Shown piece by piece: positions 8,321-12,580 of a stretch of DNA of 24,000 bases; within the stretch, counting starts at the first letter, position 1; every line of letters starts with the position of its first letter. The DNA is from Moraxellaceae bacterium (GTDB lineage: Bacteria > Pseudomonadota > Gammaproteobacteria > Pseudomonadales > Moraxellaceae): the NCBI GenBank assembly GCA_030646295.1, contig JAUSND010000012.1:39723-63722 (forward strand), written 5' to 3'. The notes beneath the pieces are model-generated. The model did no database searches and was not told the origin of the DNA. It was given only the letters and a program-made list of their open reading frames with translations. The position numbers and the translations under genes are program-made.

Positions 8321-9232
8321 TCAGTTCGCCTGCCGGCAATCCCCCAGAACCAGACCGCCCGGCTGCATGTCGATAACCGTGCCGGTTAGCGTGGCGAAGT
8401 TGCCTTCCGACAGGGTGAGGAAGAACTTGGCCTGGTCTTTGGCCAGTGCGCATTTGATCTGGTAGTTGAGGTCGTTGAACTGGGTTTCCTGACGCACGCC
8501 GAGCAGGCCGCGGGTTTGCGTGACCAGATAATTCACGGCCATGTCGCCGTGCAGGGGCGAGCCGGTAACGGTGTAGATCTGCCCGTCCACGCGGTATTTG
8601 CGGCCGATGTATTTGGCGCGCACCGAGGCAAAGGCCTCTTCGTATTCACCCGATGATGCCGATACACCGGTGCCGATCAGGGCACGGCTCAACTGGCCCT
8701 TGGCCGCCACGGGCGACAGCGCCTTTTTCACCACCTTGCCGATTTCGGCGGAGAGCTTTTCGGCCTTGGCATCCGTTACCTTGTTTATGCCGGTTTTCTC
8801 GCGCGCGGCAGCGGCGATGGCGTCGCCTTCCTTGCCGGTCTTGAGCTTTGCCAGCAGCGAACAGAATTCCGTGCGCACGGCGGCGGCTTCGGTTTTCTGG
8901 CCACGGGCCAGCTTGGTGCTGATGCTTACCTTGCCCGACTTGTCGGCCGTGGCCAGCATCACGATGGCAGGATTGTTGCTGTCCTGGATGAAATACAGCT
9001 CGCCGGCACCACCCTTGATGAGCTCGCCACCCACTTTGTAGCCGCCATCCAGCGCAATCTGCTGCAACTGCCCCAGCGCACTCTGCGCACTCAGGCCTTG
9101 CACCTTCACCTGCCCGGAAAAGAACAGGCCGTTACGGGGATCACCCACTGACTGAAAACCGTCTTCGCAGCTCTGCGCCAGCGCAAAACCCGAAAGCATC
9201 ACAAGACCTGCTGCGAAAACTGCCTTATTCAT
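8321..9232 (-). CDS. secreted/periplasmic protein of unknown function (303 aa)
   Basis: Sec signal MNKAVFAAGLVMLSGFALA-QS. The mature part is Lys/Ala-rich and soluble. Host-like GC content. Confidence 0.8.
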   Translation of the reverse strand: MNKAVFAAGLVMLSGFALAQSCEDGFQSVGDPRNGLFFSGQVKVQGLSAQSALGQLQQIALDGGYKVGGELIKGGAGELYFIQDSNNPAIVMLATADKSGKVSISTKLARGQKTEAAAVRTEFCSLLAKLKTGKEGDAIAAAAREKTGINKVTDAKAEKLSAEIGKVVKKALSPVAAKGQLSRALIGTGVSASSGEYEEAFASVRAKYIGRKYRVDGQIYTVTGSPLHGDMAVNYLVTQTRGLLGVRQETQFNDLNYQIKCALAKDQAKFFLTLSEGNFATLTGTVIDMQPGGLVLGDCRQAN

Positions 9233-9306
9233 GGGTATCCACCTGATTCCTGCCTATACGTTCGGCACAAATTCTGCCTGCCGCCACGCTGGCCTGTCCA
9301 GCCAAA

Positions 9307-9380
9307 GCGGGCACCGTGCAATGGTACTACCCTAGCTTCCCAAGCTAGAGCCGTGGGTTCGATTCCCATCGCCCGCTCCA
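9307..9380 (+). tRNA. tRNA-Gly(CCC)-like gene with a degenerate 5' third (possible pseudo-tRNA)
   Basis: A 74-nt cloverleaf can be drawn, with anticodon loop ttCCCaa, T-arm gtggg-ttcgatt-cccat and an encoded CCA. Three features look defective: C at position 8, an A7.C66 acceptor mismatch, and a D-stem C13.C22 mismatch plus a G.U pair. The 3' 53 nt are identical to the tRNA at 11766-11839. Confidence 0.5.
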
Positions 9381-9457
9381 CTGTTTTACAAGGGTTTTAA
9401 CCATACAGGCCCCTCGTCCTGAGGGCACTGTTATGACTTTTGTGGCCCCTTCTAGCC
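9328..9457. repeat. left arm of a 130-bp perfect inverted repeat (3' 53 nt of the tRNA plus 77 nt of 3' flank)
   Basis: I checked by hand, base by base, that this arm is the exact reverse complement of 11689-11818. Imperfect similarity continues outward to about 9281 (blocks cgctggc and gtccagcc) and more weakly inward (cgcacaagga at 9496-9505 versus 11667-11676). Confidence 0.92.
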
Positions 9458-9540
9458 ATACTTCCTTTCTTCACCATTTCCCCTAATGAGTTGCTCGCAC
9501 AAGGATTACTAGCGCCGCCATGAAATGTGATTGGAGGAAA

Positions 9541-10518
9541 TCATATGTCCGAAGTCTCGGCGGAAGGAGTTGATGACAATATGTCCCTCTTTAGCCGATC
9601 AACTTCTTTGAAATATTTTCTAAGCAAGCTTGAATAAAACCCAGGATCTACATGCCTGCAATATGCTAAATGACCTAGCAAGGACCTTTTGTCTTCATCC
9701 CGCAAAGAGCCCTTGCAATAAAGACTCAACATTAGTCTTACGTGATCCTTCTGCTTTCGATGAATTGTTACATGGCCATCCTCGCAAACCTTTAAGCCCG
9801 TCACTAAGGCCGAGCCACCAGAACTGCTTCCAATCTTTGTTTTCGATGGATTCAGCGCGAGTCGTGGCGAGCTCATGCTGCTAATGGCCTCGGATACCTC
9901 TTTAAATATCCCACCACATGCACCTTTGGTATTGGTGGAAAAAACAAGATCATCCGCATAGCGTGTGTAAACACACTTTCCGTATTTCCCGGAGCTCACA
10001 ATCAGCTTCGTGATGTGAATGTCAAAATCATTCATTACGATATTGCTGATTACGGGAGAGCTTGGGAAGCCAATGGGAAGGGTGTCATTTTTATAAAAAC
10101 AGGAAAGCCGTATAATCTCTTTTGCACGAGCATCCAACTCCCAGCCAGGGGCCTCTTGCTTATGCCACCTCTCCAAGATACCTATGAAGTCAGCATATTT
10201 AATGCTTGGGAAAAAATCCTTTAGATCCAATTTTAAAAAGAATCTATTGGCGGCATGATTCTTTGCGTTATCTAATATTGATAGCCCCGGGCGATATGCC
10301 GCTGCCGCGGCATGCACGGGAATTTTTGAGAACACATTATAAATTAACCAGTACTGTATGACTTTTAGTTTTTTTGACGGATGAAAGATGTCTCGAATCC
10401 CGCCATTTCTTTTTTTTATCCCAAACTTCTTGACGTCACGCCTAGCGACAAGTATGGCGCTTTTAATCACATCCTCAGTAATCCCAAGGTCCTTGGACAT
10501 TGTATCTTCAATGCGCAT
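9541..10518 (-). CDS. retron-type reverse transcriptase (325 aa)
   Basis: RT motifs occur in order: FGIKKRNGGIRDIFHPSKKLKVIQ, the retron-specific NAKNH (NAxxH), LDLKDFFPSI, LPIGFPSSPVISN, YTRYADDLVFS (YADD), LALNPSKTKI and the retron-specific ALVTGLKV (VTG). Size is typical of retron RTs. GGAG lies 9 nt upstream of the ATG, and the start overlaps the upstream gene by 11 nt. Confidence 0.9.
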   Translation of the reverse strand: MRIEDTMSKDLGITEDVIKSAILVARRDVKKFGIKKRNGGIRDIFHPSKKLKVIQYWLIYNVFSKIPVHAAAAAYRPGLSILDNAKNHAANRFFLKLDLKDFFPSIKYADFIGILERWHKQEAPGWELDARAKEIIRLSCFYKNDTLPIGFPSSPVISNIVMNDFDIHITKLIVSSGKYGKCVYTRYADDLVFSTNTKGACGGIFKEVSEAISSMSSPRLALNPSKTKIGSSSGGSALVTGLKVCEDGHVTIHRKQKDHVRLMLSLYCKGSLRDEDKRSLLGHLAYCRHVDPGFYSSLLRKYFKEVDRLKRDILSSTPSAETSDI

Positions 10519-11422
10519 AAAGGCGCTCCGGATACCCCTTAAGGATGTAATTTCTAAATATTGCCATTAAGTCATGAGAGTCAAATCTGTAATAATAATA
10601 GGTCTTTCCCAGCCTGCTTCTAAAAAGTCCGTTCCCATCTCTCTCGATAGACGCGAATGCAGACAGAATTGCCAAATGCTGCCTTAGCTTGAAATCGCCA
10701 TCTCCAAATATAATTTTTAAAATCTCGATGAGTTCTTTGTATGTGATTGGGCCAGTAAAATACACAAGATCATGAACAAACATTACGGATATTTTTGTGA
10801 ATTTTTGGGATGGATTGCAAGATACTAAATCAATGGGGGATCGCTTCGTTTTGATTGGGTCTTTTAGTAAATTAAAAATTCCCAAGAAGGTGTCGCCTAT
10901 TGCATCAAGGTGATCTACCCCATCAGGGCTCATCTTGTAGTGAATGATTTTATTTTTCCCTGCAGCCTCCTCAATGGCCTGAATGGGGCCTAGGTTGATA
11001 AAGGATTTTGCTGCTTTAAATTTATCATCATTGATTACTATTAGTTTTTTTCTTAAATCGTTATGAGAGAACGCGCCCAACTCCGTGTAAGAGCTCGGGC
11101 TCTCAAGGACGATAATGATATGGTCTGCGAACTGGGTTATTTCATGTTCCACATCAAGAATATTTTCTTTGTGCCCCTCATCTTGAAGGGTGGAAAATAC
11201 TCTCTCCGCGAGAAAGAACTGGGCATACTCTAAATGCGATTTGGAGAACCCAATCAGCGCTTTTCTGCGCTCAGAGATGGTGCCATCTGATTTGTTTGCG
11301 CCACAAAGGAATACAAACTTAGAGACCATTGCGGGAAGGTATACATTGGATCCCGAAACAGCCGCCTTTAGGCTCAATATTCCATCGCGCAATAGTTTCT
11401 TTTTCTTTATTTCATAAAGCAT
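10508..11422 (-). CDS. retron effector candidate: N-terminal nucleoside 2-deoxyribosyltransferase-like (NDT/TIR-like) domain plus C-terminal winged-helix-like domain (304 aa)
   Basis: The N-terminal half shows the NDT-like pattern: FVFLCGA (aa 36-42), then ADHIIIVLESPSSYTELGAF (aa 99-118, acidic residue plus Gly after a beta-strand). The C-terminal part (ITYKELIEILK...LRQHLAILSAFASIERDG) looks like a wHTH. The gene lies directly upstream of the RT and is translationally coupled to it (ATGCGCATTGA overlap), as with rcaT-rrtT in retron Sen2. The call rests on motifs only; no alignment was run. Confidence 0.6.
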   Translation of the reverse strand: MLYEIKKKKLLRDGILSLKAAVSGSNVYLPAMVSKFVFLCGANKSDGTISERRKALIGFSKSHLEYAQFFLAERVFSTLQDEGHKENILDVEHEITQFADHIIIVLESPSSYTELGAFSHNDLRKKLIVINDDKFKAAKSFINLGPIQAIEEAAGKNKIIHYKMSPDGVDHLDAIGDTFLGIFNLLKDPIKTKRSPIDLVSCNPSQKFTKISVMFVHDLVYFTGPITYKELIEILKIIFGDGDFKLRQHLAILSAFASIERDGNGLFRSRLGKTYYYYRFDSHDLMAIFRNYILKGYPERLYAH

Positions 11423-11582
11423 CTTAAAGCTTGCCTACTTAAGCATGCGTTTCTTCCGGACATGGAAGCCGCTGACTAGCGTCTTCCATGTCCGGAAGAA
11501 ACGCTAGAAAGCTAAAAAATTAAGGCAGAATGTGACTCACATCCCGATGGGCTCTCACCCATAATTGCTAGGCAATTTGATA
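11420..11582 (-). ncRNA. candidate retron msr-msd non-coding RNA
   Basis: On the minus strand, a1 TTGCCTA (11575-11569) is followed by G11568 in a uAGc context. Its complement a2 TAGGCAA lies at 11437-11431, and the pairing extends to about 14 bp with two bulges. Between them are two short msr-like hairpins (atggg/cccat and atgtg/cacat). A 58-nt hairpin at 11447-11504 has a 22-bp perfect stem, a 4-bp inner stem and a tetraloop, and no T-run follows it. The boundaries are a model, not measured. Confidence 0.45.
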
Positions 11583-11688
11583 ATACATAATGTTGCCACA
11601 AGGAAGAAGGTACGCCTGAAAGTAATAGCAATTACTTTGCGTGCACCGAGCCGTGCCGCAAGCAATTCCTTGTGCGGAGGGAAACTAG

Positions 11689-11818
11689 GGCTAGAAGGGG
11701 CCACAAAAGTCATAACAGTGCCCTCAGGACGAGGGGCCTGTATGGTTAAAACCCTTGTAAAACAGTGGAGCGGGCGATGGGAATCGAACCCACGGCTCTA
11801 GCTTGGGAAGCTAGGGTA
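11689..11818. repeat. right arm of the 130-bp perfect inverted repeat
   Basis: Exact reverse complement of 9328-9457. Degenerate similarity continues outward to about 11870. Confidence 0.92.
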
Positions 11819-11839
11819 TTACCATTATACGACGCCCGC
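11766..11839 (-). tRNA. tRNA-Gly (anticodon CCC), apparently intact
   Basis: The reverse complement reads gcgggcg-tc-gtat-aatggta-atac-c-ctagc-ttCCCaa-gctag-agcc-gtggg-ttcgatt-cccat-cgcccgc-t-cca. All stems pair, U8 is present and CCA is encoded. The acceptor stem, anticodon loop and T-loop closely match E. coli glyU-type tRNA-Gly(CCC). Confidence 0.9.
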
Positions 11840-11997
11840 TTAGGCTGGACTGATGCCAGCGGGTGCATGGTACGGATTCCGGCGCCGTTCGTCGACCTCC
11901 CCAAACATCTTTAGCCACCCTGCATCCAGATGCCCGCTGGCTCCGTACAGATACTCAGGCAGACAGGAGTTTGCCCCTATCTCCGGAGATCACGCTC

Positions 11998-12580
11998 ATG
12001 ACCATTTTCCACGATTCACTTCACGCCCCACTCCACGCCTCAAAGACCTTGCTGCCCATCGCCCTGCTTATGACACTGGCAGGCTGCCACACCATGGCGC
12101 CTTCCGCCCCGGCCTTCACGCAAGAGTCGCTGCCCGAGGCAGTCAAAGTGCCGGCGGGCCATGCCGTTGCACTGGAAACGGTTGGCGCAGGCGAGATTAC
12201 CTATGAATGCCGAGCCAAGGCCGACAACGCGGCGCTGGCGGACTGGGTGTTTGTTGGCCCGAAGGCCGAGCTGCGCGATCGTCGTGGCCGCCAGATCGGC
12301 ACCTACTTCGGGCCGCCCGCTACCTGCGGCCGCGCAGGATGGCTCCAGCATTACCGGCACCCAGGTGGCAATTGCACCGGCGGGCGCAGGCAACATTCCC
12401 TTCCAGCTGGTCAAGGCCAATGCCTCTGCCAACCCGGGCATGCTGGCCGGCACCGCCTATATCCAGCGCGTGGCGCTGAAAGGGGGCGCGGCACCCGCCA
12501 GTGCATGTTCCACCGCCACTGTGGGCACGCGTGAAACCGTGAACTATCAGGCCGATTACATTTTCTGGAAGGCCAGCTGA
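11998..12580 (+). pseudogene. DUF3455-family lipoprotein gene interrupted by a +1 frameshift near 12325-12333
   Basis: The ATG at 11998 has GGAG upstream, and the lipobox is LLMTLAGC. The first frame reads ...GTYFGPPAT, then becomes nonsense. The homologous continuation QDGSSITGTQVAIAPAGAGNIPFQLVKA...VNYQADYIFWKAS runs in the frame of ORF 12161-12580. One extra base within acctgCggccgcgcag would explain the shift. Confidence 0.7.

Follow-up and report, generated by a model that had tools for sequence, protein, structure and literature searches.

This locus raises the question of whether a short stretch of AT-rich DNA lodged in an otherwise GC-rich gammaproteobacterial contig is a complete retron and, if so, of which kind and by what route it came to lie there. 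The window analysed is a stretch of 24,000 nt from contig JAUSND010000012.1 of a Moraxellaceae bacterium, and the element in question is the island at positions 9458-11688 (2231 nt). With high confidence, we regard this island as a complete retron of type II-A, very likely in its II-A1 variant, which was acquired horizontally, lies next to a tRNA-Gly(CCC) gene and would act by the mechanism proposed below. What the analysis shows directly is the gene content, membership of retron protein families, conserved motifs, the fold of the effector and the covarying structure of the non-coding RNA (ncRNA).

The G+C content of the island is 42.6%, compared to 62.9% on its left side, 60.8% on its right side and 61.7% in the rest of the window. 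In a sliding profile, G+C falls from approximately 0.60 to approximately 0.40-0.45 between roughly 9400 and 11700 and then recovers, with the lowest 400-nt windows in the island at about 39-41%. An earlier reading made from the letters of the sequence and a list of open reading frames (ORFs), here called the sequence-only reading, had described this drop as sharp, which it is, while the value it gave (roughly 38%) was slightly too low. The limits that it had proposed for the island coincide exactly with the interval between the perfect cores of two flanking repeats (Table 1), and the two genes that it had recognized, encoding a 304-aa effector and a 325-aa reverse transcriptase (RT), fill this interval in the ORF list. 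It had also noted that the stop codon of the effector gene overlaps the start of the RT gene, and an 11-nt overlap (ATGCGCATTGA) is indeed seen; as a correction to that reading, both genes are on the minus strand. The remaining ORFs in the island are antisense and 60-84 aa long, with no evidence of coding, no database search having been made with them.

The RT belongs to a retron family by both profiles and motifs. The comparison with PADLOC that the sequence-only reading had proposed placed the RT on RT_II-A (PDLC02939; 311.5 bits, 1.6e-93) and its partner on NDT_II-A (PDLC02928; 2.2e-46). The second model for the RT was RT_I-A (219 bits), and the best 25 PADLOC models listed for this protein are all models of retron RTs. 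In addition, the RT scored 307 bits on the NCBIfam model retron_St85_RT (cutoff 235), and Pfam RVT_1 matched as well. All three motifs named in the sequence-only reading were located in the 325-aa protein, with NAKNH (the NAxxH motif) at residue 84, YTRYADD at 184 (YADD at 187) and VTG at 239 within ALVTGLKV.

The partner of the RT is a retron effector with a nucleoside 2'-deoxyribosyltransferase (NDT)-like domain. A comparison with the St85 effector family had been suggested beforehand, and the protein passed the corresponding NCBIfam model, STM3845_fam ('retron St85 family effector protein' model), at 192 bits against a cutoff of 100. The local copy of Pfam gave no match for the effector; the precomputed annotation does list PF28093 (STM3845). 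When the effector was compared to the sequences of solved structures, its residues 26-157 matched positions 21-150 of the Ec86 effector (6e-17), and Glu114 (in TELGAF) stands opposite Ec86 Glu106, where the E106A chain of PDB 8qbl, a filament structure with inactivated effector, reads TALGAF. The motif around this catalytic Glu, ESPSSYTELGAFS, aligns with ESPGSFTELGAFS in Ec86, and the Glu114 column is invariant across 41 homologues. An AlphaFold2 (AF2) model of the effector, built from 41 homologues, reached a predicted local distance difference test score (pLDDT) of 86.4 and a predicted template modelling score (pTM) of 0.83. When this model was searched with Foldseek, the top matches were 7xjg_J, 8qbk_E and 8qbl_E, all of them the Ec86 effector (E approximately 1e-11 over 281-308 columns), followed by nucleoside 2'-deoxyribosyltransferases and DNPH1. 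Residues 210-269 form three helices followed by two strands in the model, an arrangement that is winged-helix-like. The expectation of an NDT-like effector with a winged helix-turn-helix domain was therefore borne out, as the predicted fold matches the Ec86 effector over its full length and then NDTs, and the C-terminal part is winged-helix-like.

The third component of the retron, its ncRNA, lies upstream of the effector gene, where a stretch of approximately 150 nt is strongly conserved between the window and seven genome loci. The alignment on which the structure was tested contained 14 sequences, namely the window, the seven genome loci, which encode relatives of the RT, and six metagenome loci found by a motif scan. 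The RNAalifold consensus structure has 48 pairs; across the 14 loci, 24 of these pairs changed on both sides, and 97.2% of cells are standard-paired. The covariation score was 0.361, compared to 0.117 for shuffled alignments (0 of 500 shuffles reached the observed score), and in a control in which the pairing partners were slid by 1-3 columns, pairing fell to 36-42%. A covarying msr-msd RNA is thus located upstream of the effector, in the order (ncRNA region, effector, RT) anticipated by the sequence-only reading. Within this structure, the a1/a2 stem has 6-7 bp, five of which are invariant while the outermost pair shows compensatory change from U:A to A:U and C:G. The changes in msr stem-loop 2 across loci are only G:U/G:C/A:U wobble, and the msd inverted repeat is 96% complementary, with 21 of its 27 pairs changed on both sides. 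An A/U-rich linker is the element of the consensus structure besides the stems. The position of msr stem-loop 2 corresponds to that of SL2 in Ec86 (GGAUGU...CAUCC), which is the element recognized by RTs in solved retron complexes (PMC12673091).

Several functional positions in the ncRNA can be proposed by comparison with Ec86, whose ncRNA sequence was verified at 100% identity in 48 E. coli genomes. Priming is predicted to take place at the G at 11568, the putative branching guanosine, which immediately follows a1 on its 3' side; the known branching G of Ec86 likewise lies in a 'UA-G-C' context. Based on the stop position in Ec86, the reverse-transcribed stretch would extend over about 11438-11518, or roughly 81 nt. 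The TATTAT hexamer upstream of a1 may be the -10 element of a promoter for the ncRNA and operon, and an A/T-rich hexamer resembling TATAAT is present in most homologous loci, about as far upstream of a1. No Rfam model was found for the ncRNA at gathering or permissive E-value thresholds; matches of its hairpins to Rfam miRNA and snoRNA models were far below thresholds and were rejected as spurious. At the search sensitivity used, neither a homologue of the ncRNA in 5,426 E. coli genomes nor its core motif in IMG/VR viral contigs was detected.

The NDT-associated retrons were divided by Mestre et al. into variants II-A1, II-A2 and II-A3 (PMC7736814). Variant II-A1 has an RT of clade 1 and an ncRNA-RT module common to type I-A, and it includes Sen2 (St85), while II-A3 has an RT of clade 9 and includes Ec86 (PMC7736814). 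On the basis of hidden Markov model (HMM) sub-models, gene order and RT affinities, the element in the window very likely belongs to II-A1 (Sen2-like) and not to II-A3. Its order is ncRNA-effector-RT, as in Sen2, whereas the Ec86 locus has the order effector-ncRNA-RT. Its RT stands closer to those of type I-A than to that of Ec86 (29% identity): among solved structures, the RTs of Ec78 and type I-A were closest (142 bits), compared to 90 bits for Ec86. Additionally, Ec86 best matches other PADLOC sub-models (PDLC02941 and PDLC02930) than the window proteins do (PDLC02939 and PDLC02928).

The retron was acquired horizontally, because its G+C content departs so far from that of the rest of the window and because, in close relatives of the host, tRNA-Gly and the gene beside it are present while the island is missing. 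Two Logan contigs from such relatives, L017 (1-200) and L021 (1-250), show the site with no retron; in these contigs, the 3' end of tRNA-Gly lies 165-220 nt upstream of, and in the same orientation as, the orthologue of a 303-aa gene (window 8321-9232). In L021, a hairpin resembling a rho-independent terminator follows the 3' end of tRNA-Gly, and an inverted remnant of the 5' part of a second tRNA copy is present, so this 5' part predates the island. More distant relatives carry other cargo upstream of the 303-aa gene, including a Phd/YefM-PIN toxin-antitoxin pair (L012:4239-4864) and a LuxR-type regulator (L011:1325-2068), as well as an alkyl sulfatase (L009:2677-4650) and DUF3455 with an Rce1-like gene (L014:700-2248). 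The site beside the tRNA is therefore a variable hotspot, at which related genomes carry other small modules. The three closest relatives of the cassette (whole contigs L029, L030 and L031) have 35-36% G+C compared to 42.6% for the window copy, and the higher value may reflect partial amelioration towards the 62% G+C of the host.

The repeats on either side of the island are inverted, not direct, with a perfect run of 130 nt, and each arm holds a tRNA-Gly(CCC) sequence. The left copy has non-standard acceptor- and D-stem pairs, is not called by ARAGORN and is probably a pseudogene. Among its first 21 positions, 5 differ from the intact copy, all of them in the 5' part (tRNA positions 7-21); from position 22 (window 9328) onwards the two copies agree completely, up to the 3' end and over the next 77 nt. 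The centre of the repeat is thus perfect, while its outer part (the 5' tRNA part and the sequence upstream) and its inner ends have diverged, a pattern that hints at gene conversion between the two arms. On each inner side of the repeat the 10-mer CGCACAAGGA is present, at different offsets, and weak similarity may continue inward with an indel. Inverted flanking repeats were absent from five genome loci of the subfamily and from the contigs of the three closest relatives, and they were accordingly rejected as a general feature of this retron subfamily; the 77-nt repeat flank had no match in JGI metagenome contigs. The cassette carries no integrase or transposase. That the inverted tRNA repeats represent an undescribed route of capture, inversion or exchange for bare retron cassettes at tRNA genes is a long shot; such a route could involve recombination or gene conversion between the inverted tRNA copies, and the alternative is that the arrangement arose by a one-off rearrangement.

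Other neighbours in the window encode a Big_5/CopC protein, hybrid histidine kinases, DUF3455, hisB/hisH/hisF-type proteins, and CtpA-like and M23 peptidases. A defence island around the retron was considered and rejected, since these neighbours are housekeeping genes. The DUF3455 gene adjoining the tRNA (11863-12580, plus strand) is split over two frames, with PF11937 positions 1-43 and 81-157 in separate ORFs, and is either a frameshifted pseudogene or the product of a sequencing error. A direct repeat of 36 nt (12166-12201 and 12365-12400, 72%) lies within the gene.

Table 1. Features of the retron island and its flanks, in window coordinates.
Feature	Position	Strand	Basis or remark
Left repeat arm (perfect core 9328-9457)	9296-9474		Repeat search, 179 nt, 93% complementary
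Degenerate tRNA-Gly(CCC), convergent with the intact copy	9307-9377	plus	Rfam tRNA 40.2 bits; left arm
Retron RT, 325 aa	9541-10518	minus	PADLOC, NCBIfam, Pfam RVT_1, motifs
Effector, 304 aa: N-terminal NDT-like N-glycosidase domain and C-terminal winged-helix-like domain	10508-11422	minus	Profiles, AF2, Foldseek
Retron ncRNA (msr-msd), a1 to a2, 145 nt	11431-11575	minus	Conservation, RNAalifold, covariation
a2 inverted repeat TAGGCAA	11431-11437	minus	Pairs with a1; 8 nt upstream of effector start codon
msd stem-loop, 27-bp inverted repeat with 4-nt centre; msDNA hairpin template	11447-11504 (58 nt)	minus	Helix 4
msr stem-loop 2 CGGGAUGUGAGUCACAUUCUG, nearly invariant in subfamily	11526-11546	minus	Helix 3, 100% paired
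msr stem-loop 1 AUGGGUGAGAGCCCAU	11547-11562	minus	Helix 2, 98.8% paired; closing pair GC, UG, CG, UA
a1 inverted repeat TTGCCTA	11569-11575	minus	Pairs with a2
-10-like hexamer TATTAT, 4 nt upstream of a1 (putative ncRNA/operon promoter)	11580-11585	minus	Sequence reading
Right repeat arm (perfect core 11689-11818)	11672-11850		Repeat search, 179 nt, 93% complementary
Intact tRNA-Gly(CCC), 3' end towards island	11766-11839	minus	ARAGORN; Rfam tRNA 63.5 bits; right arm

How such a retron would work can be proposed from what is known of Sen2 and Ec86, from which the synthesis of multicopy single-stranded DNA (msDNA), the position of its branch point, the relation of toxin to antitoxin, the effector's substrate and its trigger are all carried over. 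A single transcript starting just upstream of a1 would comprise the ncRNA, the effector gene and the RT gene. The RT, positioned by the a1/a2 stem and the two msr hairpins, would prime at the 2'-OH of G11568 and copy the msd hairpin region into msDNA of roughly 80 nt. The complex of RT and msDNA would then serve as the antitoxin, binding the NDT-like effector and keeping it inactive, as reported for Sen2, where RT-msDNA is the antitoxin of RcaT (bioRxiv 10.1101/2020.06.22.160168). Modification, degradation or titration of the msDNA by a phage would release the effector or switch it on, and the effector, through its catalytic Glu114, would attack NAD(P)+ or a related nucleotide substrate by N-glycosidase activity and stop the infected cell (abortive infection). 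For Eco1 (Ec86), PMC12673091 describes filaments of RT, msDNA and effector in which the effector, an N-glycosidase, hydrolyses NAD(P)+, with methylation of the msDNA as the trigger. Glycosidase chemistry is supported in the window effector because the catalytic Glu and the overall fold are conserved, and the most economical guess is a glycosidase-type reaction on a ribosyl- or deoxyribosyl-nucleobase bond.

Alternative explanations concern both what the island is and what it does. The RT could belong to another class of bacterial RTs (group II intron, diversity-generating retroelement, abortive infection [Abi] or UG/DRT), in which case its adjacency to the 304-aa protein would be coincidental. 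The RVT_1 core is common to all bacterial RTs, and weak matches were obtained to models of group II intron RTs (group_II_RT_mat, 50 bits; cutoff 300), Drt3a (38; 200), Drt2 (35; 390), Drt4 (20; 450) and AbiA (27.5; 250). However, these scores of 20-50 bits against cutoffs of 200-450 compare to 307 against 235 for the retron model; the best PADLOC models listed are all retron models; the RT has both the retron-specific NAxxH and VTG motifs; a covarying msr-msd RNA adjoins the genes; and the effector and RT occur together in every related locus examined. At E<=0.1, no NCBIfam or Pfam model matched the RT beyond those for retrons, group II introns, Drt, AbiA, RVT_1 and zf-HC2, the last of which was sub-threshold (15.9 bits; cutoff 22.2). 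In addition, no Rfam group II intron or other RNA family matched in the window beyond the two tRNAs, and the repeat search found no near-identical template/variable repeat pair around the RT. A non-retron RT is effectively refuted already and has a negligible probability, and the sequence-only reading was right to prefer a retron RT to a group II intron, Abi or DRT enzyme, given that the retron model is above its cutoff and those models are far below theirs. It could also be proposed that the island is an artefact of assembly or binning, in which foreign DNA was joined via the tRNA-containing repeat and the retron is not part of the GC-rich genome. The source of the island is a metagenome-assembled genome (MAG), the same 130-nt sequence stands inverted on both sides in an arrangement prone to mis-joining, and tRNA sequences are conserved between organisms. 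Nevertheless, the arms differ outside the perfect core, and their own 5' tRNA parts and upstream sequences run into different unique host flanks; the degenerate 5' tRNA part on the left has an orthologue in the same place in the retron-free contig L021. Furthermore, Logan contig L008 (run SRR13727526, 2291 nt) matches window 9428-11718 at 100% identity, its two ends forming a perfect inverted repeat of 30 nt, so the island and both of its junctions with the repeat are reproduced independently, in an assembly that reaches just 30 nt into the repeat and stops short of the host flanks. We consider an artefact very unlikely.

Granting that the island is a retron of this genome, its effector may nonetheless differ from that of Ec86, and several observations weigh against the mechanism as proposed. 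NAD(P)+ hydrolysis is an extrapolation from Ec86. On the PADLOC model that it fits best, the effector reaches just 156 bits, compared to 314 bits for Ec86 on its own model, so the window effector comes from a subfamily that is fairly diverged from the model seeds. Its sequence likeness to the Ec86 effector is confined to the N-terminal domain (34% over 145 aa), and the match in the C-terminal part is structural only, with template modelling (TM) scores of 0.47-0.55. Reading of the msd sequence found no GATC or CCWGG (Dam and Dcm sites), so the known methylation triggers may not apply. A less likely but serious reading is that this is a working retron whose effector is not an Ec86-like NAD(P)+ glycosidase, having instead another nucleotide or nucleic-acid substrate or a mainly DNA-binding action, and a different trigger. 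The restriction of sequence likeness to the N-terminal domain, the best match to another sub-model than that of Ec86 and the lack of Dam and Dcm sites in the msd all favour such a difference, as does the point stressed in PMC12673091 that the phage component detected varies among retrons whose msd sequences differ. On the other side are the conserved catalytic Glu and its surrounding motif and the match of the whole fold to Ec86. A further possibility is that the element is a retron by descent that now persists as a decaying or silenced relic of horizontal transfer and does not work in defence. The mismatch in composition is large (42.6% versus 61.7% G+C), an automated scan found no full sigma-70 promoter upstream of the ncRNA and no strong promoter, and relatives are sometimes inactivated by insertion sequences, either between the effector and RT genes (L001) or inside the effector gene (L004). 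However, both ORFs are full length and retain every family-invariant residue that was checked (the RT motifs and Glu114), the overlapping start and stop are intact, and neither the a1/a2 stem nor the msr hairpins have broken pairs, which makes a relic improbable.

The complete type II-A retron in the window is a conventional one, and its family is already recognized by public annotation. An identical effector is present in NCBI as 'MAG: retron St85 family effector protein [Moraxellaceae bacterium]', and the best 120 effector matches, several of which are annotated likewise, have 52-65% identity. These relatives come from Vibrio, Dickeya, Methylotenera, Gallaecimonas, Zhongshania, Microbulbifer, Halomonas, Endozoicomonas and many metagenomes, and only distant relatives (26-35% identity) were found in plasmid and phage collections. 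The sequence-only reading had called the proteins highly diverged and their specifics probably undescribed; with an identical effector annotated and more than 100 relatives at 52-65% identity this was overstated, and it stands in a weak sense for the ncRNA, which is absent from Rfam. The Prokaryotic Genome Annotation Pipeline (PGAP) names the Ec86 proteins 'retron St85 family' too, so this label denotes type II-A broadly and not Sen2-like retrons specifically. Among the related loci, L001 has a 448-aa transposase-like ORF (family not checked) between the effector and RT genes (L001:4588-5934), and L004 has a two-ORF transposase-like insertion inside the effector gene (L004:4834-5688). In L031, one of the closest relatives, the contig ends, downstream of the RT gene (L031:2260-2353), in what reads on the opposite strand as the 3' end of a tRNA-like sequence (GTTCGACTC...GCCACCA), with a terminator-like hairpin before it, and this cassette too appears to abut a convergent tRNA gene.

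With this locus, the type II-A1 retrons gain another well-formed member, whose host is a GC-rich environmental gammaproteobacterium labelled Moraxellaceae in NCBI, and the general understanding of retrons stays unchanged. The locus also provides an ncRNA with exact coordinates and covariation support for a populous St85-like subfamily, in which PGAP names both proteins and not the ncRNA. The result is useful for annotation, and the compact retron could serve in screens for msDNA production or genome editing.

Compared to known systems, the element shares its effector class with Retron-Eco1 (Ec86, II-A3), with 34% identity in the N-terminal domain, the catalytic Glu aligned and a fold match over the full length. 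The ncRNA layout is also alike, consisting of a1, a 'UA-G-C' branch point, two msr hairpins, a 'UGC(C/A)UU' linker, a long msd hairpin and a2. The likeness to Ec86 noted from the sequence alone, that of effector class, thus holds, and it does not extend to gene order, which in Ec86 is effector-ncRNA-RT; the ncRNA sequences are otherwise unalignable, and Ec86 lies in a P2-like prophage context whereas the window retron is a bare cassette. At the Ec86 locus of E. coli strain C (L028:1591-2670), the effector coding sequence (1591-2514) overlaps the first 14 nt of the ncRNA (2501-2670). Retron-Eco7 (Ec78) and other type I-A retrons have the RTs closest to that of the window among solved structures, and RT_I-A is its second-best PADLOC model, a likeness that fits the (msr-msd)-RT module common to I-A and II-A1 described by Mestre et al. 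(PMC7736814). The effectors of type I-A are, however, a PtuA/PtuB-like ATPase and HNH nuclease, while the window effector is a single NDT-like protein. For Retron-Vmi1, a related retron, an msDNA of 85 nt, a pair of msr stem-loops and a branching G close to the 5' end are described (PMC11701397), and this architecture fits the window ncRNA. Retron-Sen2 (St85) of Salmonella Typhimurium, a II-A1 retron with the arrangement msrmsd-rcaT-rrtT, differs from the window element in its enteric host, the window host being a GC-rich environmental gammaproteobacterium, and in that the window cassette lies beside tRNA-Gly between inverted tRNA-containing repeats. Two NCBIfam models take their name from this retron (STM3845_fam and retron_St85_RT), and the window proteins exceed the cutoffs of both; the window RT has the type I-A affinity expected for RT clade 1 (PMC7736814), and the two elements consist of the same three parts in the same order.

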